This document shows, piece after piece, positions 3,700 to 56,781 of a DNA stretch of 64,000 nt. The notes beneath the pieces were generated by a model. The model was not told where the DNA came from, ran no database searches, and saw nothing but the letters and a program-made list of their open reading frames with translations. The position numbers and the translations under genes are program-made. Numbering within the stretch: position 1 is the first letter of the stretch; every line of letters starts with the position of its first letter. The stretch lies in NCBI RefSeq assembly GCF_029227915.1, contig NC_079879.1, forward strand, positions 27,443,095 to 27,507,094, given 5' to 3'. This stretch comes from Hydractinia symbiolongicarpus. Lineage: Eukaryota.

Positions 3700-4130
3700 A
3701 ACATCAAACTAAATGTTTATCAATTTGATTTTTTTGCACAGATTGATTTAATTGACATGCAATCAAAACCTGATGGGGATTTCAAATGGATTGTGAATCA
3801 CTTTTCAGAATTCTGTATCATTTTTCCTCTAAGAAGTAAAACAGCTAAGGAGACTTATTGATATGTTTCTGGTAGTATTTGGCATGCCTAAAATAATCCA
3901 TTCGTGTTATGGCCAGGAGGAACAAAGTTTATCCGTGGCTCATCTGGTCACTCACAATCACAAGGTCGTCTTGTGGAGCAGGGAAACAAAACCATTCAAG
4001 TAATGATTAGTGCTCGGGAACAGGACAATGGCTTGTGTTCTTGGAGTTATTGCCTACCTTTACGTTGTAAATATTTTTCAAATCTGAAATTATTTAATAT
4101 CTTATATGAAACTGCAATATTCCATTAAGA
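3700..4130 (+). pseudogene. Degenerate rve-type integrase core fragment, GIN/gypsy-integrase-like
   Basis: Translation gives IDLIDMQSKPDGDFKWIVNHFSEFCIIFPLRSKTAKE, then a frameshift, then GHSQSQGRLVEQGNKTI. This matches the integrase catalytic core, with the first D in DLIDM and the C-terminal HxQSQGxVER motif. It is interrupted by stops. Confidence 0.4.
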
Positions 4131-10683: not shown

Positions 10684-11204
10684 GTAAGCAGGGTAAAGTT
10701 TATTACAAACACGACCCTGCGATGTTGGGAGTGGTTATATTGAAGATAACGCAGAAAACTTGCCTTTGCCTAAACCTGACCTTAACCCTGTCCCCAGGGT
10801 CACTTTTAACAACTATAAGACCTTTTAAGGATGCGTTTTATGTTACATCTCGCGTCTGTAGACATTTGAATTATTTAAACAGATTAGACTCCATCATATA
10901 TACCACTTCTCTTACCTTTGCTATCAACGTATGGTGGTTTTATTTACTTCTTATGAAAATCTGAACGGTTCCACTGTTGAAAACTGCCAGGTTCCATGTT
11001 AGCATGAGTGGAAAACGAATTTAGAGTAAAAAAGTAGCCTTCACATGGAGCCAAAATGACATTTCAAACCGCAATAAGATTTATCATGTTTACATAAAGT
11101 TTCTATATCAGAATCGTGCGAACTGCATATGCGCTGTAACTTGGTGCACTGAAATGGAATTTAATGTAAAGGCTAACTAAAGAATATTTTTTTTATTTAT
11201 TTAG

Positions 11205-11354
11205 ACTGAATCACCACCATGGAAAGCGATCTTCACATCTGTTCCTATGTGGGCAATCATTGTTGGTCATTTTGGTGCATGCTGGGGATATTACACTTTG
11301 TTTACACAGATGCCAACCTACTTAAAAGATGTTCAACATTTAGATATTAAAACT
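11205..11354 (+). CDS. SLC17-family transporter, exon 6
   Basis: Product TESPPWKAIFTSVPMWAIIVGHFGACWGYYTLFTQMPTYLKDVQHLDIKT. Compare sialin [30 protein letters not shown]. Confidence 0.85.
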
Positions 11355-11467
11355 GTGAGAATTTTTAAGCATATCTCACAAAACATCAGAAGCAAATAAG
11401 CAAATTTTATCTCCAGGGCTTGGTGCAAAAAACACACAATGATATTGTAATATTTCGTAATTTTTAG

Positions 11468-11600
11468 ATGGGACTTGTTGCAGCTACACCTTACCTGTTT
11501 AAAGCTTTTCTTGGTCCTCTTGGAGGGATATCTGCAGACATGATACTTCGTTATGGTTATCTTACTGTCACTGGAGTGCGTAAGCTGTTTTATGGCGTTG
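11468..11600 (+). CDS. SLC17-family transporter, exon 7
   Basis: Product MGLVAATPYLFKAFLGPLGGISADMILRYGYLTVTGVRKLFYGV, donor gtaaga. Confidence 0.85.
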
Positions 11601-12159
11601 GTAAGAACAATCCACTTTTTTGTTACGACTGATTATAAAAAAATAGGCAATATCTTTTTATCTGCAAAATGATTTATGCTTTGATATAGTCTAGGTTTAA
11701 AATCAATTACAAGTAAAACAATCAATAAAAACTATTTTTATTAGCGCAGAATCTTACATAACCACTTCCTTCCCTCAACAATTTGAAGGCGGAAATAATA
11801 AATCACTTCCGCTTTCAAATAGTTCATCATTATATTAAGGTTTAAAAACTTCGTACTCTAGAGTGGAATAATCATATCCCCCGCATTGGTAATTATCGTA
11901 TTTTTTTCCATATATACAAAAATAATATATAATATCTATGCTTTGCATTTTCTAACCGCCCCATATATTCCACTTCGTTCGACTTAAAGACTTCCTGGGT
12001 AAAGTTTTATGAATTAAAATTAAAGCATTAAGCGAAGATGTGACGCATCATGCAAGTGAAGCTCCCCATCCTTCATTCCAACAGGACTGTGAATTACACA
12101 ACTAAAAATTCAAAAACATTTGACAACAACATAATTTACGGCTTGTTTTTTTTTTGTAG

Positions 12160-12398
12160 GTTGTATACTAGCAGGTTTCTTTATTCTTATGGTTGGTTAT
12201 TATATAAAGAAAGCTGAAGCAATTGCTTTCTTGATATTAGGCGTCGGTTTCAGTGGGTTGAACGCCACTGGATACGCCGTGAATCATTTAGATTTAGCAC
12301 CAAGATACGCAGGCGTGTTGATGGGTATCACAAACACATTTGCAACCATACCTGGTTTTCTCAGTCCAATGGTTACAGGATATATTGTTAAAAACAAG
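12160..12398 (+). CDS. SLC17-family transporter, exon 8
   Basis: Product [80 protein letters not shown]. Compare sialin [26 protein letters not shown]. Confidence 0.85.
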
Positions 12399-12799
12399 GT
12401 GAAGGTTTCTTACTGTTTTTTAAAATAAATATGTCGGCCTGTGGAATGAACCTCGTTTCTCTAGATTTTCTTTTAGAGTTTCCTAAATACTTAGATAAGA
12501 GTTTATGTGAACACTGAATTTGATTTTCTTTAAATGTGTTCTGTTCCAAAAAACAGTTACATCTGCAATCCCGACTATAACAAAAAAAACGAGTTTTTAA
12601 CCAACCATAATCAGTTTAGTAAAATAAACTCCGATATTTTCCTTACTTTTTTACGTACACACAAATAAAACCAGGTTTGTAAATAAACCTTTTTTGAAGT
12701 CTAACTTGAAATTTAAGACTGTTTTGTTCTGTAAATCATATTATACAATATCCTGTATTGAATGTTTGTATAGAGTGACTTTCTTTTTGTAAATTTCAG

Positions 12800-12997
12800 A
12801 AAGCGTCGGAATGGAAAATAGTGTTTTGGATAACATTTATCATTTATGTGATTGCAGTTGGTCTTTATTCTATAATGTGTTCTGGAGAAAGACAGTGGTG
12901 GGCTGATGGTTATCCAGAGAATGACAACGCAGATGAAAATGAAAATATAACAGATGAGGCGATAAACGAAGATACTGAACCAAGTGACAATAGATAA
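12800..12997 (+). CDS. SLC17-family transporter, exon 9 (terminal). The product has an acidic C-terminal tail.
   Basis: Product KASEWKIVFWITFIIYVIAVGLYSIMCSGERQWWADGYPENDNADENENITDEAINEDTEPSDNR, then TAA at 12995–12997. The nine exons sum to 1779 nt, giving 592 aa, and all exon phases are consistent. Confidence 0.8.
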   Translation, partial: KASEWKIVFWITFIIYVIAVGLYSIMCSGERQWWADGYPENDNADENENITDEAINEDTEPSDNR

Positions 12998-13546
12998 TAA
13001 TAATTTGTTATAATAACTTATGTATATAGTATATTTTTGATACAACACACCATCATTTTTTAGATTTCTTTGTTTCTTTTTTTACTATTGTTACTGCGCT
13101 TTTAGATATTTTATATCTTAGGGATGAGGGTTTAAACCAGCTAAAATAACGATTGAATGGGTTATGCCATGTTAAGTCTTATTCTAAAAACTTACTTATT
13201 GAATTTGCTTTGATAAATTCATCTTTGGTCACATAAACTTGTGTAATTGTGTGGTCAGTCTTCAACACAAGTAATCGTTCACATTATTGGTAATTTTAAT
13301 GCTGAACTGAACCAGATCTTCCAAAAATCATTTTTTTATTCAGACAGACATGTTGTTTGTCACATTTTTTTTTCATTAAATACTTTAACCTGCTACCATA
13401 TTCTCGGAGTAATTTGCACCTAATTACATAGGCTAAATGGGGGGGATTCTAGCGAACTGTTCTTTAGCTATAGATCAATTTTAAGAACAATGTTAATTTG
13501 TAACTTTTTATTTAACAATGCAAAGTTTGTGGAATTATATGCCCGT

Positions 13547-15704
13547 AAAACCATGTGAATTGGATGGGACAAAGTGTTTATGAGTTTCGGGCATATGCTT
13601 CATTAAACAAGGCTTAGACTTCTTGTTTAACTCTTCTAATAAATAAGGAGTCAATGACTATAGTAGAAGTCTTCGCGAACGCGCGGTCACAACTTTTGAT
13701 GGTTCTCACACGTTGTATGCATCAAGTATTCGCCAAAGTTAACAAGTATGCGCTGATATAGACAATGAGCAGCTAATCGAGGCGGTTAGCAGTGGATTTA
13801 GGGCGGGATTCATTGATGTTCATGGAACTGCGCCAAAAAGTGGGGTAGCAACGTGTTTTGAATGAAAGATTGGCCGATGTTCACAAGTGTGCTTTGATCG
13901 ATACGATGAGCAGCGAGTGTGGGACTGAATGAATGATGGATGTATACAAGTAGTCACTGTTACGTGGTGTAGGAGCGTTGAACATAGATGTATGTGCCAT
14001 GTTTACAACTGTGCATGGATACTCAATATAGGTGTTGGGTGAGGGACTGATAGAGGGGTATTCACCGATGCTCCCACAAGTGCATGTAGGTGCGCCAAAA
14101 ACGGTCTTAGTGTATCTCTGCTCTTTTATATCCCATTTTTTCTCGTGCAACCTAAATTTATTCCGCCTTACCGTTTTCATATAGAAAAACCCTGAAGATT
14201 ACCAGACAGAGAGAAAAACAATAAAAAAGCGTAATGGTCATTTCGGATTTATTACCAGCTTCTAATAATTTATGTTTTGGCAAAAAAAAAAGAGAAAGAA
14301 AATAAATAAAATTTTTGACATAAAAATATACGTGAAAAAAAATATTTAACGAAACACATTTCAAAAATGCACCAAGTTTAATAACTTTTATAATAAAATC
14401 ACTGTCACAATTGTGTACACATTCGAGGTTGAAATACAAAACAATATTCAGGTTTCAGAATTATCTGATATTGTTAGAGGGGCTAGCTAAATTTGTAACC
14501 ATAGACTACAAGATAATTTCATGTAACAAATATAAATAATAAATATATAAAACACAATATGATCACTAATCAAATAACTTTTAGTGATCGCTATTTCATT
14601 GATCATCTATATAGAATAAACCAGAATAAAAAATTTTAATAATCGCATTCGTTTATATAGCAAATGTACTTTCAAGATTTAAATTAAAAATATAATTGGT
14701 TGAGAACTTCCAAATTATAAAAATAATAACCAGACCAGACGAGAGAAGAATACCGTTAAATTGAACGCAAATTTAACAATTCACAGAATTTAATTTTGCA
14801 AGAAAATTTCTAGTTAAGTTTTTCAGAACTAGTTCTCAAATTCTGTAATTTACTGTAAAATTATTAGAAAATGGACACAAAGATAAAGCCTGGCGTGTTT
14901 TTAATGAAATTTTATGAGATCTAGCAGGTTTGTGAAATTCAATCCCCTTTAAGGAATCAAGAATTTTTGTAACAAACACAACCTAGACTAGATTTCTCAC
15001 AAAAATTCCTATTCATGTTATAACACATCCTTATATGGAAAACAGTACAGGATATTATATTACTTTTTCAATGTTTTTATTTTTATTATTAACTCCTGGG
15101 TATTATAAGAGCAGATGTTTTTTAAATTTTGTAAACATCTCAAACTCACATTGTAAACAAAAATTCTTAAAATAAGCCATTTTACTTTAAATATTTGTAC
15201 AATTACTCATTCACATGCTTAAGGTATTATACAAATATTGAGAAATGTTACTCCGAATGAATTCTTCGTTTATCATGCTCAACAAATTTCGTCCCCTCAT
15301 AGTTGCTGTGGTGTCTCGTTTTGTTCCGTCTTACAGAGTTTCTTAAAGAATGTCTGAAAGAGCTGAATTTTTTGTTCCATGATTTATTTCGTTGTGGTAT
15401 TTTTGTAGTATAACATCTTTGTGCTTGCTTACGGCTATCAAATACTTCTAACCCATCAACAACATTAAGATACAGATCCTTATATTTATTTAAATCCATT
15501 TCAAATCGAAATATGCCACCATTGCTGTATTTACTTTTTAATTTAAATTGTCTTTCAGCAAAGTCTCCTTGTTGTGGGAAAAACCCCATTTTTACTTTGT
15601 GTTTTTCAATTTCCAAATAAACCAAATCTCTCCAGGCAAATGTTTCCATCCTTTTAGGAAGAGTAAACTTTTCAATATATGACTCATATACGAAATGAAC
15701 TCCA
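13547..15704. repeat. Copy 1 of a ~2.16-kb near-identical direct segmental duplication. It carries the 3' flank and the last 457 bp of the FERM gene.
   Basis: 13547–15704 is collinear with 19495–21652 at a constant offset of 5948 bp. I saw a single mismatch in the stretch I compared base by base (ttttactt against tttaactt near 15595 and 21543). The ORF-track proteins at 13881–14180 and 14158–14439 are identical to those at 19829–20128 and 20106–20387. Confidence 0.9.
15248..15704 (-). pseudogene. Truncated duplicate carrying the 3' third of the FERM-domain gene (C-lobe and basic tail only)
   Basis: The 165-aa ORF at 15248–15745 matches the C-terminus of the 380-aa protein at 21196–22338 (VHFVYESYIEKFTLPKRMETFAWRDLVYLEIEKHKV...). 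Homology ends at the duplication edge and there is no N-terminal part. Confidence 0.7.
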
Positions 15705-16839
15705 GTTTTACTCCGGGTAAAAACGGTCCAAGAAATGCTTATCAAAAGCGTCCGCGTTTTTCGGCCCGTAGGTTTTTAAAAACGGTCGAGGACCGTAAGT
15801 ATTATATCTTTGGTACATGGTACCATACTTTTATCTGGTATGTGTTTTAAACGTGTCTGATGGTTTTACGAGCGCTAGAATTTGAAAGTCGAATAAATTT
15901 TCTTTCGATCGAATATAAACATGCTTATGTTGAACATCGTGGAATGTCTTTTTAGCTGTCTTGAAATAGTGCCTCTTTCAATTTTACCCTTCCAGTAACA
16001 AACTTTGTTGGGTATAGAATAGTATTAAATGGTATTATTTTTCTATTTGAAGGCATTAAAACGCAAGTTGTAAGACGAATCTTCAATTCTGTTGTTTTAC
16101 ATTTTTTAATTTTGAAGTTTTTTTGGTAAATAAAAGCAACGGAAGTATGGGAAAATTGTAGTAAGCTACGTATGGCAGTCTCAGGAATTAAGAAATGGCG
16201 GCCATTTTTAAATTGTTTCTTTTTTATTATATTCTGTAAACTAAGGTGTGTTAATGGTCTATCTGGCTATGTCCTATGAGTATAAGTATATTTTAGGTCT
16301 CATATAGCCGACTTCTCAATTTTTCACAATATATACAAGAAACCCATCCATATAAAAAAAATTAAAACTTGTCTTTAAAGCTAGCTAGCTAGCTAAATAT
16401 TTTGTGGATGTGTTGTCCCATTGTATAGCTATAGCTAGCTATGCTTTATTCTGACTAAATTTTCTCATGTATTAATTTTTTCGCAAGTTTTCATTCATCC
16501 ACAAGTAACAAGGAAAAATTTAGGGTTTTTAGGCAAAATAGATGCGTTAAACCGTAGCTAGCTAGAGTTCTGTGTATAGATGAGCGAATGTTTACAAAGT
16601 TCTGTATATGTACGCGCATTCTTACAGGCAATAAAAGAAGGACCACATAAGAAAAACTATTTCCACTAATTTATATATTTAAGGAATAAACGATCTAAAA
16701 GGAGCTGGAATTGGAATACCGTTTTTTTTAATTAAGAAAAGAAAAATGTTTTTTCCCTATAAATAACGAACTTGTGTTTATATATATATACGTTTATTCT
16801 TATTTTTTTTAAAACATTCCAAGACATAAAAATTCATTT

Positions 16840-16990
16840 CTTTGTGTCATTCGCCAAAATAAATTCCGTTAAAATAAACATTTTTTTGTATTCGCCAAAT
16901 TAAATCCTCGCCAAATTTTATAAAATTTATCATTCGCAAAATTAAATCCCCGCCAAGTATTCCATTTTGGTCATTCACCATTAAATACTC
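16840..16990. repeat. Degenerate ~38-bp tandem repeats immediately upstream of the unknown ORF pair
   Basis: The motifs cattcgccaaaataaattcc, gtattcgccaaattaaatcctcgccaaatttt, cattcgcaaaattaaatccccgccaag and cattcaccattaaatactctccaaaattt are imperfect iterations of one unit. Confidence 0.5.
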
Positions 16991-17137
16991 TCCAAAATTT
17001 ATCCACTTAAGATAGTAAATAAAAATATCCTCTCTTTTTCATCTTCTTTTTCTAAAATGACAGATAATAACTTTTCTTTTCTATATATATATATAATATA
17101 TATATTTATAATTACCTATGTTTTTAGATCATGTATA

Positions 17138-17641
17138 ATGATGTCAGATTTAATTGATTCATATGCAGAGTTGGACGAAAAAAATATCCTCGTCATCAAT
17201 TTAATAAAGTTTCACTTCGATACAATTTTAACATCTCTTAATCGAAAAATTCAAGCAAAACAAACTTTGTATAATCCCTTCAAAGTTGTCATTAATGAAC
17301 GTGTCCATTCCGAAATATTTTTAGCTGTTTATAAAGCCATTCGCGACTTCCGCACAGCTTACGGTAGAGAATTGATTGTTAAGAAAGACAAAAGTGGTAT
17401 CATTAAAGAAATTAGTATTATTTTTCACCATCTTGGGTCATTGAAATTCCATTTATCAAACTTGTCTAGCCTTGATATCAATAAAATATTCAAAAAGAAG
17501 TTTAAAAGCAATGCCGTCGGTGATATAATATGTGACGATGAAAAAAAATGTATTTTACATTACAAAGTGTCAACAAAGACATTAAATATAACTGCATCGT
17601 ACAAAGTTGTCAATCAATATGGTATGGTATGTAGTTATTGA
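17138..17641 (+). CDS. Hypothetical intronless ORF 1, about 167 aa, no recognisable domain
   Basis: The ORF-track ORF 17057–17641 begins in low-complexity (TA)n sequence, so I take the internal ATG ATG at 17138 as the more plausible start (MMSDLIDSYAELDEKNILVINLIKFHFDTILTSL...). It lies between the two duplicated copies. Confidence 0.35.
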   Translation: MMSDLIDSYAELDEKNILVINLIKFHFDTILTSLNRKIQAKQTLYNPFKVVINERVHSEIFLAVYKAIRDFRTAYGRELIVKKDKSGIIKEISIIFHHLGSLKFHLSNLSSLDINKIFKKKFKSNAVGDIICDDEKKCILHYKVSTKTLNITASYKVVNQYGMVCSY

Positions 17642-17696
17642 CAGAATTGGATTTTTATCCTAGTTAAATGTTTTTATTTTGTTGTATTTCTATGCC

Positions 17697-18518
17697 ATGC
17701 CTCCTAAAGGAAAGTCAAAGGCACAAAACATTAAGTTTTCCCAGTTAGGAAAATATACATCAAACAGAAAAAAAATCAACGATATGGATTTGAAAATTTC
17801 AAATCAGAGTAACCTAATTGAGGAAAAACAAAAACAATTAGCAGCATTGAGCAGTGAGATAACTTTGATTGAAAGGGATGTTGATAAGTTAAGAAATAGA
17901 TTAGCTAGAAAAAGAAAACGTGTTAGACACCTAAACTATGAGTGTAGTAAGAATAGAGTGGACTCTGAAGTCAAATTTAGCATCAGCAAGGTAACAGCTG
18001 AGAGGCGTAGTAAATTCCCATCATCTAGTGATTTAAATAGATCAGCAAAAGATACACGTCGTCTGGAAACATTTGAAGCTTGTTCTGCCATTCACGGAGG
18101 GTCTAAGGAATCTGTTCAGCCGGTTATGTTTGGTATGATTGACACATTGTGTTCGAAAATCCCCTCAAAAATGTTTGCAAAAAGTTTATTGAATGCTAAA
18201 TCATCTGTAGTAAAACAGATAAAGGAAACTACCATCAAAATAGCAAATGAAGAATTTTACAATTCAGAAGATAATAAACTACGTTCTCTCAATGTTTTTT
18301 ACAGCCACAATGTCATGGGGAAAGCTAAATACATGGCAATTAGAAAGGCAAATAGAATTTCCCAGAATAAACAGAATTCAGTGGTTAATTATATTCAGTA
18401 TCCTCATTTAGCAACCATTATCAATAACATTGATATAGGAACACTACATGACATACATCCAACTCTAACCTTTGGAGATGAAACAAGAGAGTGCTTTCAT
18501 GAAAAAGGTTTTTTCTGA
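17697..18518 (+). CDS. Hypothetical intronless ORF 2, about 273 aa. It has a lysine-rich N-terminus (MPPKGKSKAQ), a coiled-coil segment and a basic KRKR patch.
   Basis: The first in-frame ATG is at 17697. The ORF-track start at 17679 is a TTG alternative start. The segment EEKQKQLAALSSEITLIERDVDKLRNRLARKRKRVRHL is a predicted coiled coil followed by a putative nuclear localisation signal. I could recall no homolog. Confidence 0.4.
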   Translation: MPPKGKSKAQNIKFSQLGKYTSNRKKINDMDLKISNQSNLIEEKQKQLAALSSEITLIERDVDKLRNRLARKRKRVRHLNYECSKNRVDSEVKFSISKVTAERRSKFPSSSDLNRSAKDTRRLETFEACSAIHGGSKESVQPVMFGMIDTLCSKIPSKMFAKSLLNAKSSVVKQIKETTIKIANEEFYNSEDNKLRSLNVFYSHNVMGKAKYMAIRKANRISQNKQNSVVNYIQYPHLATIINNIDIGTLHDIHPTLTFGDETRECFHEKGFF

Positions 18519-19494
18519 TTTAGAAATTTAGACACCGTTTTTTGTTTAAAAGTTCAGTATGTTGATAGTTCGTGTTAGATGTATATTTTCCTTATTTCCT
18601 TATTCTGCTATATACTTTTTGTTTGCATAACATTTGCAATGTATATTTGTGAATCAGTGAGATAGTGTCTTTCGCAAGAGTATGAATATTAATTTTCCCA
18701 ATTAGAAAGCTCAAAGAAATCAATTTTTTAATATAAATGTGTGTGAATTAATGTTTTGTCAGAACATTTGGTACATAAATGTTTACGACGTAATCATATA
18801 GAAAGTATGGTGACTATTACAGCATAAAATTTATAATATTTACATCAAAGAATATGTATTTTATACAAATATATTTTATTTTTATGAGCATGGCAATGCC
18901 AAATTTTCTCTTGCAAAAGAAAACAAATTCTAGATCATCATCATTTTTTTCTGTGAATAGATGTTATAAAACACTAGCTATATGATAGTTTATATTTTAT
19001 TAAAAAAAAGTTTTCATAGTTCATATGTTTTATTTAAACAGAGTTGTTGTGTTATTATTTGCTTCATATTGAGATACAATGTGTCACAAAAGTAGTTTTT
19101 GTTGTTTGACTGTCCTGTGTGTTCTGGCAGCTAGCTAGCTGTGCTGCCTCCATCCCATCTTCTTTTTATTTTTTATTATATGCAATAATGAGTAACGGTA
19201 GCTACGAAAGCCATAAAATAACAATAATTTATCCATTTTTTACTCGTTATATACCAAATCAAAACTTTAAACACTTGCAGCAACCTTTCAGTGTGTTTAG
19301 CCAGGTAGCCATTTTTATTTTTCTACAAATCTCTCCATCGCGCTGCTGTTGTACCTGCTATTGTGAAAACCTAGGTTGCAATTGAAGGAGTGTCGAATTG
19401 CGGCGCAAACTCCATGTAACAATCCTTGACAAAATAGCCAGGCCGTTTGAAAAATACGAGTTAAGCATTTTCACACGGGAAATAGCCCGCCGTG

Positions 19495-21652
19495 AAAACC
19501 ATGTGAATTGGATGGGACAAAGTGTTTATGAGTTTCGGGCATATGCTTCATTAAACAAGGCTTAGACTTCTTGTTTAACTCTTCTAATAAATAAGGAGTC
19601 AATGACTATAGTAGAAGTCTTCGCGAACGCGCGGTCACAACTTTTGATGGTTCTCACACGTTGTATGCATCAAGTATTCGCCAAAGTTAACAAGTATGCG
19701 CTGATATAGACAATGAGCAGCTAATCGAGGCGGTTAGCAGTGGATTTAGGGCGGGATTCATTGATGTTCATGGAACTGCGCCAAAAAGTGGGGTAGCAAC
19801 GTGTTTTGAATGAAAGATTGGCCGATGTTCACAAGTGTGCTTTGATCGATACGATGAGCAGCGAGTGTGGGACTGAATGAATGATGGATGTATACAAGTA
19901 GTCACTGTTACGTGGTGTAGGAGCGTTGAACATAGATGTATGTGCCATGTTTACAACTGTGCATGGATACTCAATATAGGTGTTGGGTGAGGGACTGATA
20001 GAGGGGTATTCACCGATGCTCCCACAAGTGCATGTAGGTGCGCCAAAAACGGTCTTAGTGTATCTCTGCTCTTTTATATCCCATTTTTTCTCGTGCAACC
20101 TAAATTTATTCCGCCTTACCGTTTTCATATAGAAAAACCCTGAAGATTACCAGACAGAGAGAAAAACAATAAAAAAGCGTAATGGTCATTTCGGATTTAT
20201 TACCAGCTTCTAATAATTTATGTTTTGGCAAAAAAAAAAGAGAAAGAAAATAAATAAAATTTTTGACATAAAAATATACGTGAAAAAAAATATTTAACGA
20301 AACACATTTCAAAAATGCACCAAGTTTAATAACTTTTATAATAAAATCACTGTCACAATTGTGTACACATTCGAGGTTGAAATACAAAACAATATTCAGG
20401 TTTCAGAATTATCTGATATTGTTAGAGGGGCTAGCTAAATTTGTAACCATAGACTACAAGATAATTTCATGTAACAAATATAAATAATAAATATATAAAA
20501 CACAATATGATCACTAATCAAATAACTTTTAGTGATCGCTATTTCATTGATCATCTATATAGAATAAACCAGAATAAAAAATTTTAATAATCGCATTCGT
20601 TTATATAGCAAATGTACTTTCAAGATTTAAATTAAAAATATAATTGGTTGAGAACTTCCAAATTATAAAAATAATAACCAGACCAGACGAGAGAAGAATA
20701 CCGTTAAATTGAACGCAAATTTAACAATTCACAGAATTTAATTTTGCAAGAAAATTTCTAGTTAAGTTTTTCAGAACTAGTTCTCAAATTCTGTAATTTA
20801 CTGTAAAATTATTAGAAAATGGACACAAAGATAAAGCCTGGCGTGTTTTTAATGAAATTTTATGAGATCTAGCAGGTTTGTGAAATTCAATCCCCTTTAA
20901 GGAATCAAGAATTTTTGTAACAAACACAACCTAGACTAGATTTCTCACAAAAATTCCTATTCATGTTATAACACATCCTTATATGGAAAACAGTACAGGA
21001 TATTATATTACTTTTTCAATGTTTTTATTTTTATTATTAACTCCTGGGTATTATAAGAGCAGATGTTTTTTAAATTTTGTAAACATCTCAAACTCACATT
21101 GTAAACAAAAATTCTTAAAATAAGCCATTTTACTTTAAATATTTGTACAATTACTCATTCACATGCTTAAGGTATTATACAAATATTGAGAAATGTTACT
21201 CCGAATGAATTCTTCGTTTATCATGCTCAACAAATTTCGTCCCCTCATAGTTGCTGTGGTGTCTCGTTTTGTTCCGTCTTACAGAGTTTCTTAAAGAATG
21301 TCTGAAAGAGCTGAATTTTTTGTTCCATGATTTATTTCGTTGTGGTATTTTTGTAGTATAACATCTTTGTGCTTGCTTACGGCTATCAAATACTTCTAAC
21401 CCATCAACAACATTAAGATACAGATCCTTATATTTATTTAAATCCATTTCAAATCGAAATATGCCACCATTGCTGTATTTACTTTTTAATTTAAATTGTC
21501 TTTCAGCAAAGTCTCCTTGTTGTGGGAAAAACCCCATTTTAACTTTGTGTTTTTCAATTTCCAAATAAACCAAATCTCTCCAGGCAAATGTTTCCATCCT
21601 TTTAGGAAGAGTAAACTTTTCAATATATGACTCATATACGAAATGAACTCCA
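19495..21652. repeat. Copy 2 of the ~2.16-kb direct segmental duplication. It is contiguous with the full-length FERM gene.
   Basis: See copy 1. Identity ends exactly at 15704 and 21652. Both copies are preceded by a similar motif, gcccg..aaaacc. Confidence 0.9.
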
Positions 21653-22338
21653 TTTTCTGACAAAGCAATGAAAAAACTCTCTGTAGCTTTATCACAAATA
21701 TTGTAAATGATATAACCATAGAGGGGAACTTTTTGAACAAGACTAAGATATAATATATCTGCTTGTGCTGGGCGAGTACCCTGTAATTGTTTGTGATACA
21801 CTCTTACCAGTTTCATATAATTAATTTCAGAAATTGTTTCATTGCAACTCAGTGTTGTTGGAGCAAATATTTCGAATTTGTTCATTTCTGTAGAATACTC
21901 TTTTTCATTTACATTAAAATTACCCAGTTCAGCTTGTGCTATAAAGGCATCAAGCATAGCATGTGTTTTAACATTGCAACCCAAGTCTCCATTAATCAAC
22001 AGCCCTTTCATAAAATGCCTGAATAAGCGTCTTCCTTCTGCAGTTGTTATTGCTAAGTCTGGATTTCTTGGATAAACCCTCACAGCAAAGTGTAAACAAA
22101 CTTCCTCAGTGTCTGAGATAGAACGCAAATATTTCAGTGTCCTTAGGTTTTCTTCCGGTTGTAACCAATTCATACCAGCATCATTTTTGTCCGAGTATCG
22201 TAAACCGAAAATTTGGCTATCGTTTGATATTTTCAGTGCATTAAATGTTTCTTCCACAAGGAAATTTCCTTTCAATTTCTTTGATTTCAAATGTATATGT
22301 ATATTTTCACCATTAGGTAATATTATGCTAAAGTCCAT
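21196..22338 (-). CDS. Intronless FERM-domain protein, 380 aa. It has a ubiquitin-like N-lobe, a helical M-lobe and a PH-like C-lobe, followed by a basic tail.
   Basis: ATG at 22338. The N-terminus MDFSIILPNGENIHIHLKSKKLKGNFLVEETFNALKISNDSQIFGLRY matches the FERM-N pattern. FAVRVYPRNPDL...GRRLFRHFMKGLL matches the FERM-M lobe. VHFVYESYIEKF...GIFRFEMD matches FERM-C. Confidence 0.7.
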   Translation of the reverse strand: MDFSIILPNGENIHIHLKSKKLKGNFLVEETFNALKISNDSQIFGLRYSDKNDAGMNWLQPEENLRTLKYLRSISDTEEVCLHFAVRVYPRNPDLAITTAEGRRLFRHFMKGLLINGDLGCNVKTHAMLDAFIAQAELGNFNVNEKEYSTEMNKFEIFAPTTLSCNETISEINYMKLVRVYHKQLQGTRPAQADILYLSLVQKVPLYGYIIYNICDKATESFFIALSENGVHFVYESYIEKFTLPKRMETFAWRDLVYLEIEKHKVKMGFFPQQGDFAERQFKLKSKYSNGGIFRFEMDLNKYKDLYLNVVDGLEVFDSRKQAQRCYTTKIPQRNKSWNKKFSSFRHSLRNSVRRNKTRHHSNYEGTKFVEHDKRRIHSE

Positions 22339-23399
22339 CCTTCAAGTACAATCTTTTTTAAAGTAAACGAAAAATACGAAAACTTAGCAATAGCTATTTT
22401 TAAAAAAACGTGCCCTTCTTTGCGACATTTCCACTGCTTATAATTAAACTTCCCGCCTGTCGGTTTCTTAAAATAGCTACACCCCCAATCCATGGATTCG
22501 ACGTCTTCTGATATTTCTATTTAAAAGTATAGCTGGAATGCCTAGAATGGGTGACCATGGATATGTAAACAAATGGAAATTGCTTCACTCTCCATCGCAG
22601 TGTTTACAACTGTGACAAATCCTATGATCAAGACCCGTAACCTGGAACCAAACCCCGAACCCCGAAACCCGGTAATCAATACCCCGTTGCCTTTTCCATT
22701 TGGCTTTCTGATTTCTTCATATCTCGGGACAGCAAGAAACTCGCCAGTCCTTACTGGGTTTTAGGGCCGGCAATAATGAAGACCGGTATGAAAAAGAAAT
22801 CGTTAAAAAAGATTGTATTTTTTTGTCGAATATATTTATTGTTTACATTGTTTTGCAGTTGTGGGGCACCGTACCCATCAAACTTTCAAATTCTATTCCT
22901 ACAAGTCAAACTTATTTTTAACAAAGTATTTTTGTTAAATTAGATTAAAAAATTAAAGGCCGCCACCAACCTCGTCCCCAGTCTTGTTGGGCTTTTTATA
23001 TTTGGACGGCATGCAAATATGAAAACCCTAACAAGTCCTGTACACCCCTACCTTAAAAAAAACTTGGGAAGTAAGTCCTGTACACCCTACCTTAAAAAAA
23101 CTTAGGAAGTTGTCCATTTTATGCATTTAGCAAAATTCAAAGAGCTGCCCATTAAACTGTAACCAACCATTCAATTAAGTACCGAAATCGAGTATCGTTC
23201 AAAAATAAAATAATACATCAAAACCAATCATTTTTATAAATTTGTGTCTTTTACACAACTAAACATTGTTTGATTTGACAATTCCGAAATATATTCGGCA
23301 TGTATGCGTTTAGATAAAAACAAGCTTCAACCACAGCAGAAAAAGCATTGTTTAATGCTTCAACATTTTTCAAAAAATAGCATTTTTGTAAGTTAAGTA

Positions 23400-23750
23400 T
23401 AAGTTGTAACAAAATCTTAGTTGTAGCAAAATCTTAGTTGTAACAAATTCTTAGTTGTAACAAAATCTTAGTTGTAACAAAATCTTAGTTGTAACAAAAT
23501 CTTAGTTGTAACAAAATCTTAGTTGTAACAAAATTGAAGTTGTAACAAAATTTTAGTTGTAAGAAAATCTTAGTTGTAACAAAATTGAAGTTGTAACAAA
23601 ATTGAAGTTGCAACAAAATTGAAGTTGTAACAAAATCTTAGTTGTAACAAAATTGAAGTTGTAACAAAATTGAAGTTGTAACAAAATTGAAGTTGTAACA
23701 AAATTGAAGTTGTAACAAAATCTAAGCGTATCGAAGGCTACAGTGTTAAA
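23400..23750. repeat. 17-bp minisatellite, about 20 copies, with units cttagttgtaacaaaat and tgaagttgtaacaaaat
   Basis: The tandem array is clear by eye with two alternating unit variants. It lies about 470 bp downstream of the F-box gene stop. Confidence 0.85.
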
Positions 23751-23825
23751 TGATGATAAAAAAAGGCGGTAACAAAGACGTACAAACACGTTGCAAAATC
23801 CCGTCGCAAAAGAGTTTGTTTCTTA

Positions 23826-24114
23826 AGGGAGATTTTCACGAAGCGAATTGAACGGCGAATTCGATGGCGAATTGTATCTGAGCATGCGCAGTTTTGTTTG
23901 TTTTGATTTTGCATCGAAATATTCGCTTCGCTGAAAAGTAGAAACAGTTCCTACTTTTTAGCGGCTAAAGGTTTCGCTGCTAGATTTTTACCAATCAGAA
24001 CGCGGTTAACTAATGTAAACAATGAATTTTGCGCCTTATTTATTTTGTCGTGAAAATTAAAAATCGAATTCGCCATCGAATTCGCCGTTCAATTCGCTTC
24101 GTGAAAATCCCCCT
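23826..24114. mobile_element. PIF/Harbinger-type MITE, 289 bp, with ~48-bp TIRs and a TTA target-site duplication
   Basis: Left end agggagattttcacgaagcgaattgaacggcgaattcgatggcgaatt matches the reverse complement of right end gggggattttcacgaagcgaattgaacggcgaattcgatggcgaatt. The flanking trinucleotide tta is present on both sides (23823–23825 and 24115–24117). There is no ORF. Confidence 0.6.
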
Positions 24115-24218
24115 TTACGCAACAATATTTTTTTAAAAAAACAGCAATGACTTCTTAGTAAAACCAACTAGTTGACGAATACAACTTAAACACCTGTTCT
24201 TGAAACATCTATTAGTAA

Positions 24219-25322
24219 CTATTTTTCAGTAGTCAATGTATATTCTTTCAGTTGTTTGAGTTGAAGAATCTCTTTGACAACATCATCATTCATTTTACAC
24301 ACCACGTCCAATACTGTCAACTTTTTACATTCTTTTACAAGATTAAGAACAGCATTGTCTAACTCATGACTTGTTGTCGTATAAATGCAAAGAGATTCTA
24401 ATGTGGTTGAGTAGATTGATGAAACCAAGTTGATGTGGTCAATAACAATTGAGTATAAACATAATTTCAATATAGAAACAGGAGCTTCTGGGACTAAAAC
24501 TCGATATGTTAACTGCAATGGACAAGTGTGGTTGAACCAAACTTCAAGTTTTAAATTAGGAGATTTCTTTTTTATCATCAACCATTCCTCGTCGGTAACA
24601 AATCTGGAATACTTTGCAGCACTTGTAAACAGAAGAGAAATAAATTGAACTTCGGCTCTATCTGCATTTCCAAACGCTCTTAATACGTCGCTACAAAAAC
24701 ATATAGCTTGGACATACAGGTATTGTAGACGACGAGCTTTCTTTACAAATGCGACTAGCATAGCACGTGATATCTGATAGACCAATGTGTTGTTTTGAAT
24801 GTTCAACACCTCAAGATAAGAGGCGTGACATTTGGTTATTGTCTTCAAAAACTCGTCTGTTATCGCGATTGGAAATTTGGATAAATCAATTTTAGTGATG
24901 TAACACAAGGATTTAGTGTTGAAAAAGTCCTGCAGGTTTTCTAGATAACATCTTCCAGAGAAAAAGAAAGGGTTTTGTTCGCAAAATTCTAATTTGAATT
25001 CTTGTAATTCCAACCGTTTTTTTCTTGCTAAATCTTGAACGAAGTTTCCGCTATTTCTGCAGTTATCTGCAGCTCGCTGGTGACATTTGATGTGTAAATG
25101 ACGAAAAAATTCACCGTAGTTTTTTGCGATATCTCGTAAGTTGACGTCACATAAGCCTTTTTGGAAATCTACCTCCACAGTGTACCACAACTGTGGTGAC
25201 TTCATACACTTGTTCCATGTTTTGCACACTTGGGCTGCGTTTAAACGGTCATCGTTCGTCAAATTTTGAAATATATTTACGTAGATTTCAGCAGGTAATG
25301 TCTCCCAATTACTTACTAACAT
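24219..25322 (-). CDS. Intronless F-box protein with C-terminal leucine-rich repeats (FBXL-like), 367 aa
   Basis: ATG at 25322. The N-terminus LPAEIYVNIFQNLTNDDRLNAAQVCKTWNKCMKSPQLW is a canonical F-box. It is followed by LxxLxL-type repeats. Confidence 0.75.
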   Translation of the reverse strand: MLVSNWETLPAEIYVNIFQNLTNDDRLNAAQVCKTWNKCMKSPQLWYTVEVDFQKGLCDVNLRDIAKNYGEFFRHLHIKCHQRAADNCRNSGNFVQDLARKKRLELQEFKLEFCEQNPFFFSGRCYLENLQDFFNTKSLCYITKIDLSKFPIAITDEFLKTITKCHASYLEVLNIQNNTLVYQISRAMLVAFVKKARRLQYLYVQAICFCSDVLRAFGNADRAEVQFISLLFTSAAKYSRFVTDEEWLMIKKKSPNLKLEVWFNHTCPLQLTYRVLVPEAPVSILKLCLYSIVIDHINLVSSIYSTTLESLCIYTTTSHELDNAVLNLVKECKKLTVLDVVCKMNDDVVKEILQLKQLKEYTLTTEK

Positions 25323-34508: not shown

Positions 34509-35361
34509 CTTTGAATGGAAACATAAAAAACAAACTTTAATTTTCCTTATTTTGAAATCAACATTTCAAGGGTGAAAACTGTTTGGTAAAAGGTATAATA
34601 TTTTGATGCAATTAAATAAATTCAGTTCACTAGCTATTCCCGAAAAATATATAACAATTAATGCACTGCATTTTCCAAGGAGTTAAGAACCACACTAAAC
34701 TTTTAGAGTAAACTAAATTGAATTTAGTATTTTATGGTTTAATTTTTATGTGTTGAAATCAATGGCAGCAATATGAACATATAATGTAAACAAAATTAGT
34801 ACACTTCTGTGGCTGAATATCAATCTTTTTGTTGGAAAGTTAAATTTGCAGTTCTGTATGGCTAAATTTGTAAAATTTAATTATCTTGCCTATAAATACT
34901 TGATAATTTCAAATAAATTATGATTACTTGCAACAAATGAAAATAATATTTAAACCAAAAGTTGAATTTGTTCAATTTTTTTACAAAAAGATTTAATTTT
35001 TATATTTTCTAGATTAGCTTTAGCTCAACTTTGAGATTAGCAGTAGCAAATACTGCATAAAATTTATCAGTTCAATGTTCAAGTTGAGTATTCAAGAAAG
35101 GAGAAAAAATGCAATATAAAGGTTAAAAATTGAAGGAAACAAAGGAGGAAAAAAATACAAGGTGAAGATAAAAAAGGTATTAAAAAGCATAATATTTGAA
35201 TGAAAAACATATGCAATACTGGGACTTAGTGGAAAGTATAACATTCCTGTCATTATTTCTGATATTCTGTAAAAAGTTTAATTTTTCTGACAATTCGTAC
35301 ATATTTTCAAAATTTCTAACAAGTCCTGGACAGCCTAAACTTTCACAAAGAATCTCCAAAC

Positions 35362-35625
35362 CTGTCATTCTTTCTTTTCCATTTTTATCAACCAAATCTT
35401 GTTTAGCTTTCAATCGCAATGCAGTTCCAAGTAATATTACACAAGGTTCTACAATGCCAAGATTTTTACACTCTGGTCTTGGATAATAAGTCCTTGGCCC
35501 CTCAATTTGCCACTCTTCTCCAGCTACTCTTTCCACTCCATTGTCATCAAATGAAACCAAGGCTTGAAGTTTTAGTGCCTTGCATGATGGTACAACTGGT
35601 AGCTTAATAATAGCCATCTTGTAGT
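35362..35625 (-). CDS. MVP: major vault protein, exon 5
   Basis: Product YKMAIIKLPVVPSCKALKLQALVSFDDNGVERVAGEEWQIEGPRTYYPRPECKNLGIVEPCVILLGTALRLKAKQDLVDKNGKERMT. Compare human [43 protein letters not shown]...GKERVTGEEW. Confidence 0.85.
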
Positions 35626-37903: not shown

Positions 37904-39327
37904 TAAAACAAACCGAAGTGGCTACAAGTACGTGACCGTATTTTAATTTTTTTTTGCTACAAGTACGTGAATGCGTAAAATGCTGGTAAGCGTACATAAA
38001 ATCACCAGTGACGCCCTTTGTGCGTGGCGTGGAGAATATTGCAGAAGGTGCAAAATAGCATTCCTCGTGAGTTATTTACAAGTGAAAGAATTGCTGTTAA
38101 TTAAAAAAATTAATTTATTAAAAATGAATGTTGGTAGTTTTCTAGTTTTTGACGAATTGCTAAAGGCTATTAACGAGCATGAAAAGTCAACTTTTACACA
38201 ACTGTATGTAAGGAGTTCAAGATCAGTAGAAAGTGGAGCAAAAAGAGCTAGCAAAAAAGTTTTTAAGGAAGAGTTGAAGTACGCAGACTACGCTTGCATT
38301 CATGGGGGGAAAGAATTTAAATCAGCTTCTACTGGAAAGCGCAAACATAATGCGCAAGTTTTTTTTATATATATTGCTATCGGTTTTTTTATATATATTG
38401 CTATCGGTATGCACAAAAAAAAATCCGACCGTATATCATACTTGCGGCGAGTCAAATATTCCGTTTTTTCTTACAGGAATGTTTTGATGAAAACCTTTCG
38501 CTGCAGGCATCACAAATGTTAAAAGTGAAAGCCAAAAAAATAAATTCAAAACCATATTTCCAATCTGTGTGGGAAAAATGTTATCTTGAAAGACCTTCAT
38601 AACATGAGCTCAAAAAACAACGAGAGTGGCTGAAATAATGTACAACAGCTACTCGAAGAAATGAAAAGTGTGCCAGGTAAATTTGAATGAAAGTGAGTGT
38701 AGTTACTATTCTTCCATAATAAAAAATTCCGATGCGAAAATAAATGTAAGATAATAACTAACAAATTTTCTTTAGGGGCAACTGTGGTAGCTGGAGACGT
38801 AATCTTTATTTCAATCGTCACAGCGACGAAACAATTAAAAAAACATCATCTGGCACATTACTTTCATCACAATTAGACACATGCATGCAGTGGCTGTGTT
38901 CTTCATTGCCCACATTAACGCTGAACTATTTGACATAGGTACACATATTTTCGTTGCAGCCTCCATGTTCTTTTTTTTGACTAATATGAGCATCATATCT
39001 TCTTGATAATATTCTTAACATGACCGTACCCTGAAAACATATAATCAGCCTTGTAACATACGTAGTCAAAGTTGTAGAGATGTAAATAAAAGCTCCTAGT
39101 TCAGAGAACCCTAAAAAGAAAATATCTTTTCATCGTCAACTCTCAAACCAACCCGCTGGCCAAGCGACTTCTAGAAAAAAGAAATACGTGAGTGCCGTAC
39201 TTCCAACAAATGAAAGTAAAAATACGTAAATGCCGTACTTCTAGCAAAAAATAGTAAAAATACGTGAATGCCGTACTTCTAGCAAAAAAAAAGTAAAAAA
39301 TACGGTCACGTACTTGTAGCCACTTCG
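37904..39327. mobile_element. Non-autonomous Mutator-like (MULE) element, 1424 bp. It has ~75-bp TIRs with sub-terminal repeats and a perfect 9-bp target-site duplication aaaacaaac.
   Basis: Left terminus cgaagtggctacaagtacgtgaccgtatttt... equals the reverse complement of the right terminus ...aaaatacggtcacgtacttgtagccacttcg. The direct repeat aaaacaaac is present at 37895–37903 and 39328–39336. The sub-terminal motif atacgtgaatgccgtacttctagc is iterated three times. The internal ORF resembles a FAR1/MULE DNA-binding domain. Confidence 0.65.
37971..38522 (+). pseudogene. Remnant N-terminal FAR1/MULE-type transposase DNA-binding domain. It is interrupted by a 24-bp tandem duplication and a frameshift.
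   Basis: The segment MNVGSFLVFDELLKAINEHEKSTFTQLYVRSSRSVESG...KEELKYADYACIHGGKEFKSASTGKRKHNAQ fits the FAR1 DNA-binding pattern F.s.eea..fY..yA..gF.vr..s......f.C..eG......gkRk. The sequence ttttttatatatattgctatcggt occurs twice in tandem at about 38355–38405. Confidence 0.4.
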
Positions 39328-42500: not shown

Positions 42501-42532
42501 ACAATTTCGCTTCGCTCGCTTCGCTCGCAAAG

Positions 42533-42845
42533 CTCAATTGCTTCGCAAAAAATGTATGGGATGAAGAAATTAAACTAACAAAACAAGCTATTAATCTTGT
42601 AAATAAAATGTCGCCAAGACCAAAGTTTTTTGTTGTTTCTGGAGACTTAATTGATGCAATGCCAAGAACAATGCATCGGGCAGCACAAGAGGAAGACTTT
42701 AAGAAGATATTCCAAGGTTTGGATTCGGAAATTCCTTTGATTTGTGTCTGTGGAAACCATGATGTTGGAAATAGTCCCACAAAAGAAAGTTTAGAAAGTT
42801 ATCGCAGGCATTTTGGTGACGACTACTTTAGTTTTTGGGTTGGAG
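42533..42845 (+). CDS. CPPED1: CPPED1-like paralog A, exon 2. It carries metallophosphatase motifs II (GDLID) and III (GNHD).
   Basis: Product LNCFAKNVWDEEIKLTKQAINLVNKMSPRPKFFVVSGDLIDAMPRTMHRAAQEEDFKKIFQGLDSEIPLICVCGNHDVGNSPTKESLESYRRHFGDDYFSFWVGG, donor gtaaga at 42846. The acceptor position after caaag at 42532 is tentative. Confidence 0.55.
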
Positions 42846-42927
42846 GTAAGAATTAGTAAACCTGAATATTACTATAAAGCTAATTTTCTTAAATAATTTT
42901 TACAATATTTACTGTTTAGCTAGCTAT

Positions 42928-55313: not shown

Positions 55314-55767
55314 ATGGCGGCAGGAGATTTCCGTCGTTCAATTAACGGTGTATATCCTGGATTTACCCACGAAAAAGAAGGAGAGTGGAAAGGAAATTTT
55401 ACCTTTATACAAGGTGCTGACACTCAATTCGGTTTGATTGACCGCTGGTTTCTTAAAAATCCTATTGAAAATAACGTGTGGGACCAAGAGATGGAACTGA
55501 CTAAGCAAGCCATAAAACATGCCAATGAAATGATTCCTAAACCGAAATTTTTCATCCTGTGTGGAGATTTGATCGATGCTATGCCTCATACGAAACACCG
55601 TGGTGTACAAGAAGAAGATTTCAAGAAGTTATACAGTGAACTTGATTCTGAAATACCTTTAGTGTGTGTTTGTGGTAACCACGATGTTGGCGATATACCC
55701 ACGAAGGAGAGCTTAGAAAGTTATCGGGCGGAGTTTGGAGATGACTATTTTACGTTCTGTGTGGGAG
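55314..55767 (+). CDS. CPPED1: CPPED1-like serine/threonine phosphatase paralog B, exon 1 of 2
   Basis: ATG at 55314. Product MAAGDFRRSINGVYPGFTHEKEGEWKGNFTFIQGADTQFGLIDRW...KPKFFILCGDLIDAMPHTKHRGVQEEDFKK...IPLVCVCGNHDVGDIPTKESLESYRAEFGDDYFTFCVGG, donor gtgagt. Compare human CPPED1 [21 protein letters not shown]...KPKFFVLCGDLIHAMP...IPLVLVSGNHDIGN...WGDDYFSFWVGG. Confidence 0.85.
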
Positions 55768-56781
55768 GTGAGTTTTTACTTTGGTGTACCTGCATACAAG
55801 TAATTTCGTCCATATTCAAGTCAGACCTATCAGTACTAGACAGGAGCTTGAGGTTTTATTATGGTACCAGTCAAACCTGTGGAAAAATCCACTTAGAAAG
55901 TAAGAAATTTTATGATGTTTTAAGAGTTTTGATGACATCAACAGTGCATATGCAAAAAATGTTTTTGGGGAATTTGTTTAACCGTTGCGTCTAAACAGAT
56001 TGAAACGCTGTAAAAAAAATAAAAGGATTATGTGCTTTCCACTAACGGTTAAGGATATATCAAAGTTTAAAAGTTCCACAAAAGTACAAAAATTTTTTTA
56101 GAATTTTTTATAATACCTGTTGTCTTTTGTATAGAGCTTTAAACAACGATTAATAAATAAAAAATATTTGAAGAATCATGTTCAAATTATTTGACTTCAA
56201 ACCTAAAAGTACAACGCATTGGCTTCACTAATCTTATTTAACATATTGACGTCAATCTAATGTATTAACATTAAATTTTTGTAAACGACAGAACAGTTTT
56301 ATAGCCGATGTTTTATAATCATCAGAGAAAATTTTAGAAATGTTATTCACTATGGGCGTTACAGACTTTTCGTATTAATTAATAAATATATCCTACTTTT
56401 TTTTGTAATATCTTATTAAATGTTTAAGCATAAACGTTTCTTCCCATAATTAACAAATTATCCTAAATCCAATTTTTTACGATCTTTAGTGTTTTTTAAA
56501 CCTCCTGCATTGCGCAAGCATGTTTATGTCAATACGACACAAATAGATGTGATATAGCCTAAAAGCCTTGGTTAAATTAATCAGCAGTCTTCGCAGCAAT
56601 CCTTGTTTTATTTACGATTTTTTGTTAGCAATATTTTACTTAGTAAGTGTGGACAAACATTTTTATTTTGGTAGGACGGCTAACGTGTTCACGATATTTG
56701 CGGACATTTCACGTTCGGTATAATACTATTCTTCGAGACACAGACGTGTTTTTGAATAGTCCTTACTTTCTTTTTTTTCAG

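Follow-up and report, generated by a model that had tools for sequence, protein, structure and literature searches.

A very young direct duplication on either side of a RAG1-like transposon in Hydractinia symbiolongicarpus, and its probable origin by aberrant transposition

A 64,000-nucleotide stretch of the Hydractinia symbiolongicarpus genome (NCBI RefSeq assembly GCF_029227915.1, contig NC_079879.1, positions 27,443,095 to 27,507,094 of the forward strand; referred to here as the window, in whose numbering positions are given) contains two nearly identical blocks, each holding the 3′ end of a FERM-domain gene together with the sequence downstream of it, with a pair of open reading frames (ORF1 and ORF2) lying between them. 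The question raised by this locus is how part of a gene came to be copied so recently, and what the intervening segment has to do with it. We find that the segment is a DNA transposon, and propose that the repeat-element-repeat arrangement was most likely made by aberrant transposition of a cut-and-paste element, whose two ends were joined to points about 2.16 kb apart on sister chromatids; we put the probability of this reading at roughly 0.55.

The duplicated block and the FERM gene

When the window is compared with itself without gaps at an offset of 5,948 bp, positions 13547-15704 (R1) and 19495-21652 (R2) prove to be a 2,158-bp direct repeat whose copies differ at one base (15593 in R1, 21541 in R2), in agreement with the spacing, the length of about 2.16 kb and the lone difference described in a first-pass annotation of this DNA. 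Identity drops to background (about 25-35%) immediately past both edges, and the abrupt end at 15704/21652, inside the coding sequence, that the same annotation described is thus seen here as well, with a possible extension of 3-4 nt (to 15708 or 15709 in R1, and 21656 in R2) if position 15705 is a mismatch or a one-nucleotide insertion. No third copy was found when the region 12000-24000 was compared with the whole 64-kb window, which has a GC content of roughly 33%.

Both copies contain the 3′ 457 bp of the FERM coding sequence and about 1.7 kb of sequence downstream of the gene. R2 is contiguous with the rest of an intact, single-exon gene on the minus strand (21196-22338) that encodes 380 amino acids, with Pfam matches to FERM_N (residues 6-66) and FERM_M (residues 113-210), and whose product is 97% identical to a protein, P0018, from a relative. 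R1 contains the last 152 codons and the stop codon (15248-15704, minus strand), with no start codon or promoter of its own; the ORF listed at 15248-15745 holds this truncated copy and continues for 41 nt inside the transposon. The sequence thus supports the view that R1 is a truncated, promoter-less FERM fragment, and the earlier description of the upstream copy as the last 457 bp of the coding sequence only is sustained by the continuation of R2 into the full-length gene.

Which of the two copies is original can be addressed using the relative. P0018 is found on 17 short Logan contigs from runs SRR9332370-83, ten of which were retrieved; these are transcript-like, with about 95% nucleotide identity to the window. 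The ten contigs are colinear with the window from about 22494 down to about 20220, extending at least 975 nt beyond the FERM stop codon, and base-level alignment reveals no indel or footprint at 21652/21653. It follows that the gene in its original form is R2 with its right flank, and that the junction at 15704/15705 in R1 arose later. The sole mismatch agrees in polarity, as two of the contigs (L001 and L002) match R2, and the change at 15593 in R1 is a derived, synonymous GTT to GTA substitution on the coding strand. The relative also has about 130 nt in its FERM 3′ region (L001 1576-1706) that are absent from the window at 20760-20766, an indel between the genomes within the duplicated block.

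The near-identity of the copies bears on both their origin and their age. The published heterozygosity of Hydractinia is 1.33% (PMC11067881), from which about 29 haplotypic differences would be expected over the repeat, and the probability of finding one or two differences in about 2,160 bp is approximately 1.5e-10 if R1 and R2 were two alleles. An allelic origin is therefore very unlikely, and a sister-chromatid or same-chromosome origin is favoured. A date can be attached to the duplication if, and only if, the relative at 95% identity is the sister species, from which the split is put at about 19 million years ago (PMC11067881); the age would then be roughly 0.2-0.4 million years, and no more than about 1 million. 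The single mismatch and the sharp edges support the conclusion that R1 and R2 are a very young direct duplication, as had been suggested; ongoing gene conversion, offered earlier as the alternative, is unneeded and has no specific support.

The transposon between the copies

In the first-pass annotation the locus was read as a segmental duplication with the ORF1/ORF2 pair (17057-17641 and 17679-18518) located between the copies. The young duplication and the placement of the pair both hold up, but the two ORFs are not bystanders: the 3.79-kb inter-copy segment that includes them is a DNA transposon with its tips at the inner edges of R1 and R2, and the duplication is therefore transposon-associated rather than of unknown cause. 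The element (15709-19494, plus strand, about 3,786 bp) is best described as a non-autonomous derivative, with an internal deletion, of a Transib/RAG1-superfamily element carrying two ORFs, on the basis of the homology of its terminal and subterminal sequences to those in three unrelated contigs (L011, L012 and L013), of ORF1 and ORF2 homology, and of the mapping of a full-length protein onto the window.

The right end is the clearer of the two. The tip 10-mer CACGGCGGGC is found at a single place in the 64 kb, positions 19485-19494 of the minus strand, with its last base adjoining the start of R2; about 0.004 occurrences are expected by chance per window, and each of the three foreign contigs also has this 10-mer once, at the start of a conserved terminal block. 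It forms the outer part of a right terminal inverted repeat at 19440-19494 (minus strand), the reverse complement of which reads CACGGCGGGCTATTTCCCGTGTGAAAATGCTTAAC. At the left, the terminal and subterminal region occupies 15709-15790 (plus strand) and starts 0-5 nt past the end of R1, with the tip (T)ACTCCGGGTA where the family has CACGGCGGGCA. A conserved non-coding block starting CACGGCGGGCA lies upstream of ORF1 in L011 and L012 and matches the first 70 nt or so of the inter-copy segment, the part common to all three being AAATGCTTATCAAAAGCGTCC...TTTTCGGCCCGTAG. A general repeat search of the inter-copy segment returned no terminal inverted repeats, and the inverted ends are apparent only by comparison with the foreign copies.

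Two of these foreign copies could be delimited at both ends. That in L012 (3309-9430) has the ends CACGGCGGGC and CACGGCGGAC and is flanked on each side by AAT, and that in L013 (5794-19846) has the ends CACGGCAGGC and CACGGCGGGC and is flanked on each side by CTT. Judged from these sequences, the family consists of cut-and-paste DNA transposons whose inverted ends read CAC...GTG and whose insertion duplicates 3 bp of the target site. CAC tips, reading CACGGC(G/A)GGC or CACGGCGGAC, are present at five foreign tips and at the right tip of the window element, the left tip of which reads TAC or AC. Further cases of target-site duplication were sought at the P0071 loci, but the ends of that subfamily differ and yielded just a weak 11-nt candidate with no matching duplication, which was not used; a metagenome scan with the 14-mer TTTTCGGCCCGTAG gave 120 loci, all of them chance matches in unrelated, mostly GC-rich contigs.

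The window element itself has no target-site duplication, being flanked by ...CCAGTTT on the left and AAAACC... on the right. By contrast, the outer junctions, between the left flank and R1 (...CCCGT-AAA-ACC...) and between R2 and the right flank (...CCA-TTT-TCT...), resemble intact empty sites for 3-bp duplications. The left junction of the element is untidy. Its sequence, GTTTTACTCC (15705-15714), begins with a G at 15705 that either faces a T in R2 or is a one-nucleotide insertion, followed by TTT(T), which is shared with 21653-21656, and by ACTCC; this ACTCC (15710-15714) repeats a host ACTCC at 15699-15703, as a 5-nt direct repeat. The left tip may be a natural variant, CACTCCGGGT, with the first base lost or mutated, or end joining may have formed the junction and added a few filler nucleotides.

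The aaaacggtc motifs that had been pointed out near the breakpoint, at 14098, 15723 and 15772, are real, with the exact positions being 14098, 15720, 15779 and 20046. They do not mark the breakpoint: 14098 and 20046 correspond to each other in R1 and R2, and 15720 and 15779 fall within two 16-nt direct repeats, TAAAAACGGTC(C/G)A(A/G)GA, that start at 15718 and 15777 in the left end of the transposon. Other repeated sequences are present in the interior of the element, including three repeats of about 41 nt (ATTCGCCAAA.TAAATCC.CGCCAA) at 16849-16961, upstream of ORF1, and dispersed AGCTAGCTAGCT motifs at 16379, 16556 and 19129. The unrelated copy in L012 has a TAGCTAGCTA-rich stretch upstream of ORF1 (3850-4000) like that in the window, and this may be a conserved regulatory or binding feature.

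ORF1 (17057-17641, plus strand) is listed with 194 amino acids, although translation probably starts at the ATG at 17138. Its homologues (54%, 39% and 32% in L011, L012 and L013, respectively) are small genes located directly upstream of the ORF2 homologue in all three contigs, and two of the three have a precomputed match to PF26709 (DUF8238). ORF2 (17697-18518, plus strand, within the ORF listed at 17679-18518) is a truncated transposase gene, in which residues 1-263 are those of a set of 792-residue proteins and are followed by an out-of-frame tail and a stop codon. In a tblastn comparison with the window, one of these proteins (P0045) matches 17697-18488 through residues 1-264 and, in a different reading frame, 18487-18528 through residues 779-792; the deletion breakpoint is at 18486-18488 (plus strand). 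Codons 265-778 or thereabouts (about 1.54 kb, comprising the entire catalytic core) have thus been deleted and the last 14 codons kept, rendering the window element non-autonomous. In L013 the transposase gene is also interrupted, by a Pao/BEL-type long terminal repeat retrotransposon (10718-16527, with DUF1759, DUF1758, RVT_1, rve and DUF5641) nested within it and separating the N- and C-terminal parts.

The ORF2 family is conserved and without annotation. More than 373 relatives were found using the C-terminal part of the L013 protein, mostly of 790-830 amino acids and none with a recorded Pfam domain; the named one, which is the protein mapped onto the window above, is XP_057297789, 'uncharacterized protein LOC130628799 [Hydractinia symbiolongicarpus]'. 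The 263 remaining residues of the window copy are identical to those of four full-length 792-residue copies (P0045, P0141, P0145 and P0152), which differ from one another by one to three residues; three of the four are annotated H. symbiolongicarpus genes on different scaffolds. These identities suggest that the family is very young and make a supply of transposase in trans plausible, and from its sequences the family looks to have been active recently, or to be active at present. They also agree, as does the GC content given above, with a source of the window in H. symbiolongicarpus or a very close relative. A homology search using the window ORF2 missed P0045 in spite of the 263-residue identity, and P0045 surfaced through the C-terminus of a distant homologue, reflecting a sensitivity gap of word-indexed searching. 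Nothing beyond coiled-coil or zinc-ribbon noise came from Pfam and PDB sequence searches with ORF1, ORF2 and the full-length transposase.

The affiliation of the transposase becomes apparent from its predicted structure. An AlphaFold2 model of the 792-residue protein built from a 19-sequence alignment is a confident one, with a mean predicted local distance difference test score (pLDDT) of 83.7 and a predicted template modelling score (pTM) of 0.73. A Foldseek search of the PDB with this model gave 44 significant matches, all of them to RAG1 chains or the amphioxus RAG1-like transposase, with E values from 1e-14 to 2e-8 over 610-730 aligned columns; the next match has E = 0.59. As modelled, the transposase has a RAG1-type catalytic core architecture, and the invariant residues D318 (in GGDGAP), D399 (in PNDMKM) and E701/E704 (in MEGREQKH) occupy positions consistent with a candidate DDE triad in a predicted RNase-H-like beta-beta-beta-alpha-beta core. 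No Cys/His cluster is conserved within residues 1-260, a region that the model shows as long helices; the N-terminus reads MPPKGKSK and continues into a long helix or coiled coil. The only invariant cysteines are the C-terminal C762, C765, C775 and C778.

Placement below the superfamily level is less straightforward. Canonical Transib and ProtoRAG elements make 5-bp target-site duplications, whereas those of the window family, in L012 and L013, are 3 bp. Transib, TransibSU, Chapaev and Chapaev3 constitute one superfamily, in which the Chapaev clades are distant from the others and have an N-terminal Chapa zinc finger (PMC4411706), and Chapaev3 elements have 3-bp target-site duplications and ends starting CAC (PMC3014272). 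The window family shares the last two features with Chapaev3, but differs from Chapaev and Chapaev3 in having no N-terminal Chapa zinc finger and in carrying a second small ORF, of the DUF8238 type, upstream of the transposase gene, which itself matches no Pfam family. Moreover, lizard Chapaev3 transposases are 485-561 amino acids long and those of the window family about 800, and AAT and CTT do not fit the lizard Chapaev3 duplication consensus, TWA. The shared fold, the CAC tips and the 3-bp duplication, taken with the missing zinc finger and the separate ORF1, thus place the family in the Transib/RAG1 superfamily as Chapaev-like, and we do not claim membership of a named clade.

How the duplication may have arisen

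There are exactly two direct copies of the host sequence, with the element (about 15709-19494) between them. A direct host duplication on both sides of an element, with the element termini at its endpoints and no normal target-site duplication, is a recognised signature of aberrant transposition, and this is why we favour that origin. In the window the element is joined at its left end to a point within the FERM coding sequence and at its right end to one about 1.7 kb beyond the gene, these two host positions being about 2,160 bp apart. This could have come about if a left end and a right end situated on different sister chromatids were handled as a single 'hybrid' element, or alternatively if the two ends of an excised element integrated into different sister duplexes. 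Either way, one chromatid would gain the interval-element-interval structure and the other would carry the reciprocal deletion and be lost, with transposase presumably supplied in trans from intact copies in the same genome. Beforehand the element could have lain beside the start of R, inside the FERM gene, or have come from elsewhere.

Several observations weigh against this origin. Exact-product look-ups with the window's FERM ORF, its truncated copy, ORF1 from either of two start codons, ORF2, the F-box ORF and P0045, together with metagenome scans, retrieved no reciprocal deletion product, empty-site allele, orthologous genomic locus or second copy of the element from the same genome with which to compare the left tip, and a metagenome scan with the sequence at the start of R gave no matches. 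If the element was originally next to R, the donor flanks must have rejoined as a seemingly intact empty site. The left tip is (T)ACTCCGGGT rather than the CACGGCGGGC of the family and of the element's own right end, with a G/T difference 4 nt away; a joint made by transposase should be exact, so the left junction was possibly made or repaired by end joining, or the tip is a natural variant. The rule of a 3-bp target-site duplication is drawn from two foreign copies, those in L012 and L013. Finally, an early Hydractinia assembly is reported to have had many false duplications, so an assembly error may underlie the structure.

The last of these points introduces the most serious rival, which we consider unlikely though it carries appreciable weight. 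Two haplotypes, one with the element between the left flank and R and the other with it between R and the right flank (for example after a local hop), could have been fused by a haplotype switch within the transposon into a false arrangement with R on both sides, and polishing would then have homogenised the R copies. Such a switch predicts the exact structure observed, with intact empty sites at both outer junctions and one-sided duplications (AAA and TTT) at the element ends. Hydractinia heterozygosity is high, Canu assemblies at first had 42% duplicated BUSCO genes (PMC11067881), and the element family is very young and thus probably mobile. However, one and the same deletion derivative would have had to insert twice within 2.2 kb, once on each haplotype, the junctions are free of Ns and gaps, and reads of at least 10 kb would span the 8.1-kb structure and normally prevent a switch of this kind. 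The haplotypes should also differ at the 29 or so positions mentioned above, though polishing could have removed these differences.

A genuine duplication might also have been built in two steps, with a local hop placing the element at both sites on different chromatids or homologues, followed by an unequal crossover inside the element that yields the repeat-element-repeat structure and a reciprocal deletion. This produces the same end structure and the same intact outer junctions as aberrant transposition, and cut-and-paste elements frequently reinsert close by. It requires more events, however, namely excision with exact repair, local reinsertion and an ectopic exchange within 3.8 kb, and if it proceeded through homologues far more than one or two differences between the copies would be expected. 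We regard this route as improbable.

Less probable still is an origin by template switching (fork stalling and template switching or microhomology-mediated break-induced replication, FoSTeS/MMBIR) or by tandem duplication with 'filler' DNA, in which transposase plays no part and the element is simply sequence copied or inserted at the junction. Template switching is a standard explanation for non-recurrent duplications (listed in PMC3744419), and the mismatch and the ACTCC repeat at the left junction could be taken as microhomology or a templated insertion. Against this, both switch points must hit the tips of a complete element, the right one to the exact base (the chance expectation being the 0.004 given above), and the junction of the left flank with R1 has no microhomology beyond 3-4 nt. 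The left flank offers little else: its last 16 nt (GGAATTATATGCCCGT) look tip-like by eye, as if a second element or remnant lay to the left of R1, but 9% of arbitrary window positions score as well or better in an end-anchored alignment, and the likeness of the last 20 nt to the tip is not significant. Nor is the 2-kb left flank similar to the element, scoring 35 against a maximum of 39 among shuffled sequences.

An older duplication homogenised by gene conversion, or unequal crossing-over between pre-existing boundary repeats, is very improbable, because although near-identity alone cannot tell a recent origin from homogenisation, the edges are base-sharp, lie at the transposon tips and are not approached by any gradual change in identity, the element is a member of a very young family, and for crossing-over (non-allelic homologous recombination) there are no repeats at the outer boundaries and a left flank unlike the element. 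Two other routes were considered and rejected. A processed pseudogene is not indicated, as the distal end has no poly(A) (AAAACCATG... beside ...GCCCGT), the duplicated block reaches about 725 bp past the furthest transcript-like contig of the relative, and both ends are set by the geometry of the repeat and the transposon. In Pack-type gene capture the host sequence would lie between the inverted ends, whereas R1 and R2 are both outside the tips at about 15709 and 19494.

A more comprehensive account would be that we see here a currently active hydrozoan transposon family shortly after it duplicated part of a host gene by aberrant two-site transposition between sister chromatids, the family being one with two ORFs, a RAG1-fold transposase, Chapaev-like ends and a 3-bp duplication, and with neither a Chapa zinc finger nor a Pfam family. 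This compound claim is a tentative one, which we hold at somewhat less than even odds. If true, it would be, to our knowledge (the literature was not searched on this point), the first natural transposition-induced flanking duplication for the RAG/Transib superfamily.

Surroundings, significance and known systems

Several other features of the window lie outside the duplicated region. Between the FERM gene and the next gene there is a 17-nt tandem array at 23402-23723 (AGTTGTAACAAAATCTT, 18.9 copies, 91% matches) and a 38-nt unit present twice at 23033-23110. That next gene is a 367-residue ORF at 24219-25322 (minus strand) with F-box and F-box-like domains and a weak FTH match; just downstream of it is a pair of 59-nt inverted repeats (23816-23873 and 24067-24125, 93% identity) around about 190 bp, which may be a miniature inverted-repeat element. 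Farther along are exon-like ORFs with major vault protein repeats (35180-35617, minus strand) and a ZSWIM3_N-like region (37971-38522, plus strand), and two calcineurin-like phosphoesterase fragments 13 kb apart (42494-42856 and 55314-55994, both plus strand), which may be paralogues or exons of related genes.

Natural, direct evidence for the duplication of gene fragments by cut-and-paste transposons is sparse, the best documented cases being experimental ones with P elements and Ac/Ds and three small natural examples of alternative transposition in the maize B73 genome (PMC3744419). If real, the locus described here would add a case from nature, both clean and very young, in an early-branching animal, involving the superfamily that is the source of the V(D)J recombinase. 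It would also draw attention to a RAG1-like transposon that seems to be live and is tractable, in a cnidarian kept in the laboratory: the family is present in the manipulable H. symbiolongicarpus, where it is labelled just 'uncharacterized protein', and could provide a living model of how RAG-type transposition proceeds and goes wrong. Should the structure be an assembly error, it would show how a haplotype switch in a polymorphic transposon creates a false segmental duplication and a false pseudogene, for which annotators should screen. Overall we consider the interest of the locus to be moderate, in that transposon-flanking duplications are an already-known class of event, to which the superfamily of the element and its apparent current activity add interest and from which the assembly question detracts.

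Among known systems, the proposed mechanism recalls hybrid element insertion by Drosophila P elements. In the work of Gray et al. 1996 and Preston et al. 1996, left and right ends of a single element on sister chromatids reportedly act together and insert nearby, with the element kept beside a host duplication or deletion. The window resembles these products in its repeat-element-repeat structure and in the lack of a normal target-site duplication. It differs in that the enzyme is RAG1/Transib-like rather than the P-element transposase, and in that the P cases are experimental recombinants, whereas the window holds a single natural product without its twin and with an inexact left junction. 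Hybrid element insertion is cited for P elements alongside the Ac/Ds findings in maize (PMC3744419).

For Ac/Ds, transposon-induced duplications with endpoints that 'coincide precisely with Ac termini' have been shown (Zhang et al. 2013, PMC3744419). The window shares with alternative transposition of Ac/Ds the direct duplications that end at transposon termini and the middle element without a matching target-site duplication, but Ac/Ds are hAT elements with 8-bp target-site duplications and the window family is RAG1-like with 3-bp ones. Reversed-ends transposition needs two elements and generates two repeats each preceded by an element, with each repeat 'initiated precisely by the transposon' (PMC3744419); in the window, by contrast, there is no element or remnant in the 2 kb to the left of R1. 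As to its internal structure, the window element is like Ds-type deletion derivatives: it keeps both ends and the adjoining interior, has lost the central portion of its transposase gene and, in what it retains of that gene, is identical to intact copies. Here we see no notable difference, and deletions of this type are the usual route to non-autonomous copies.

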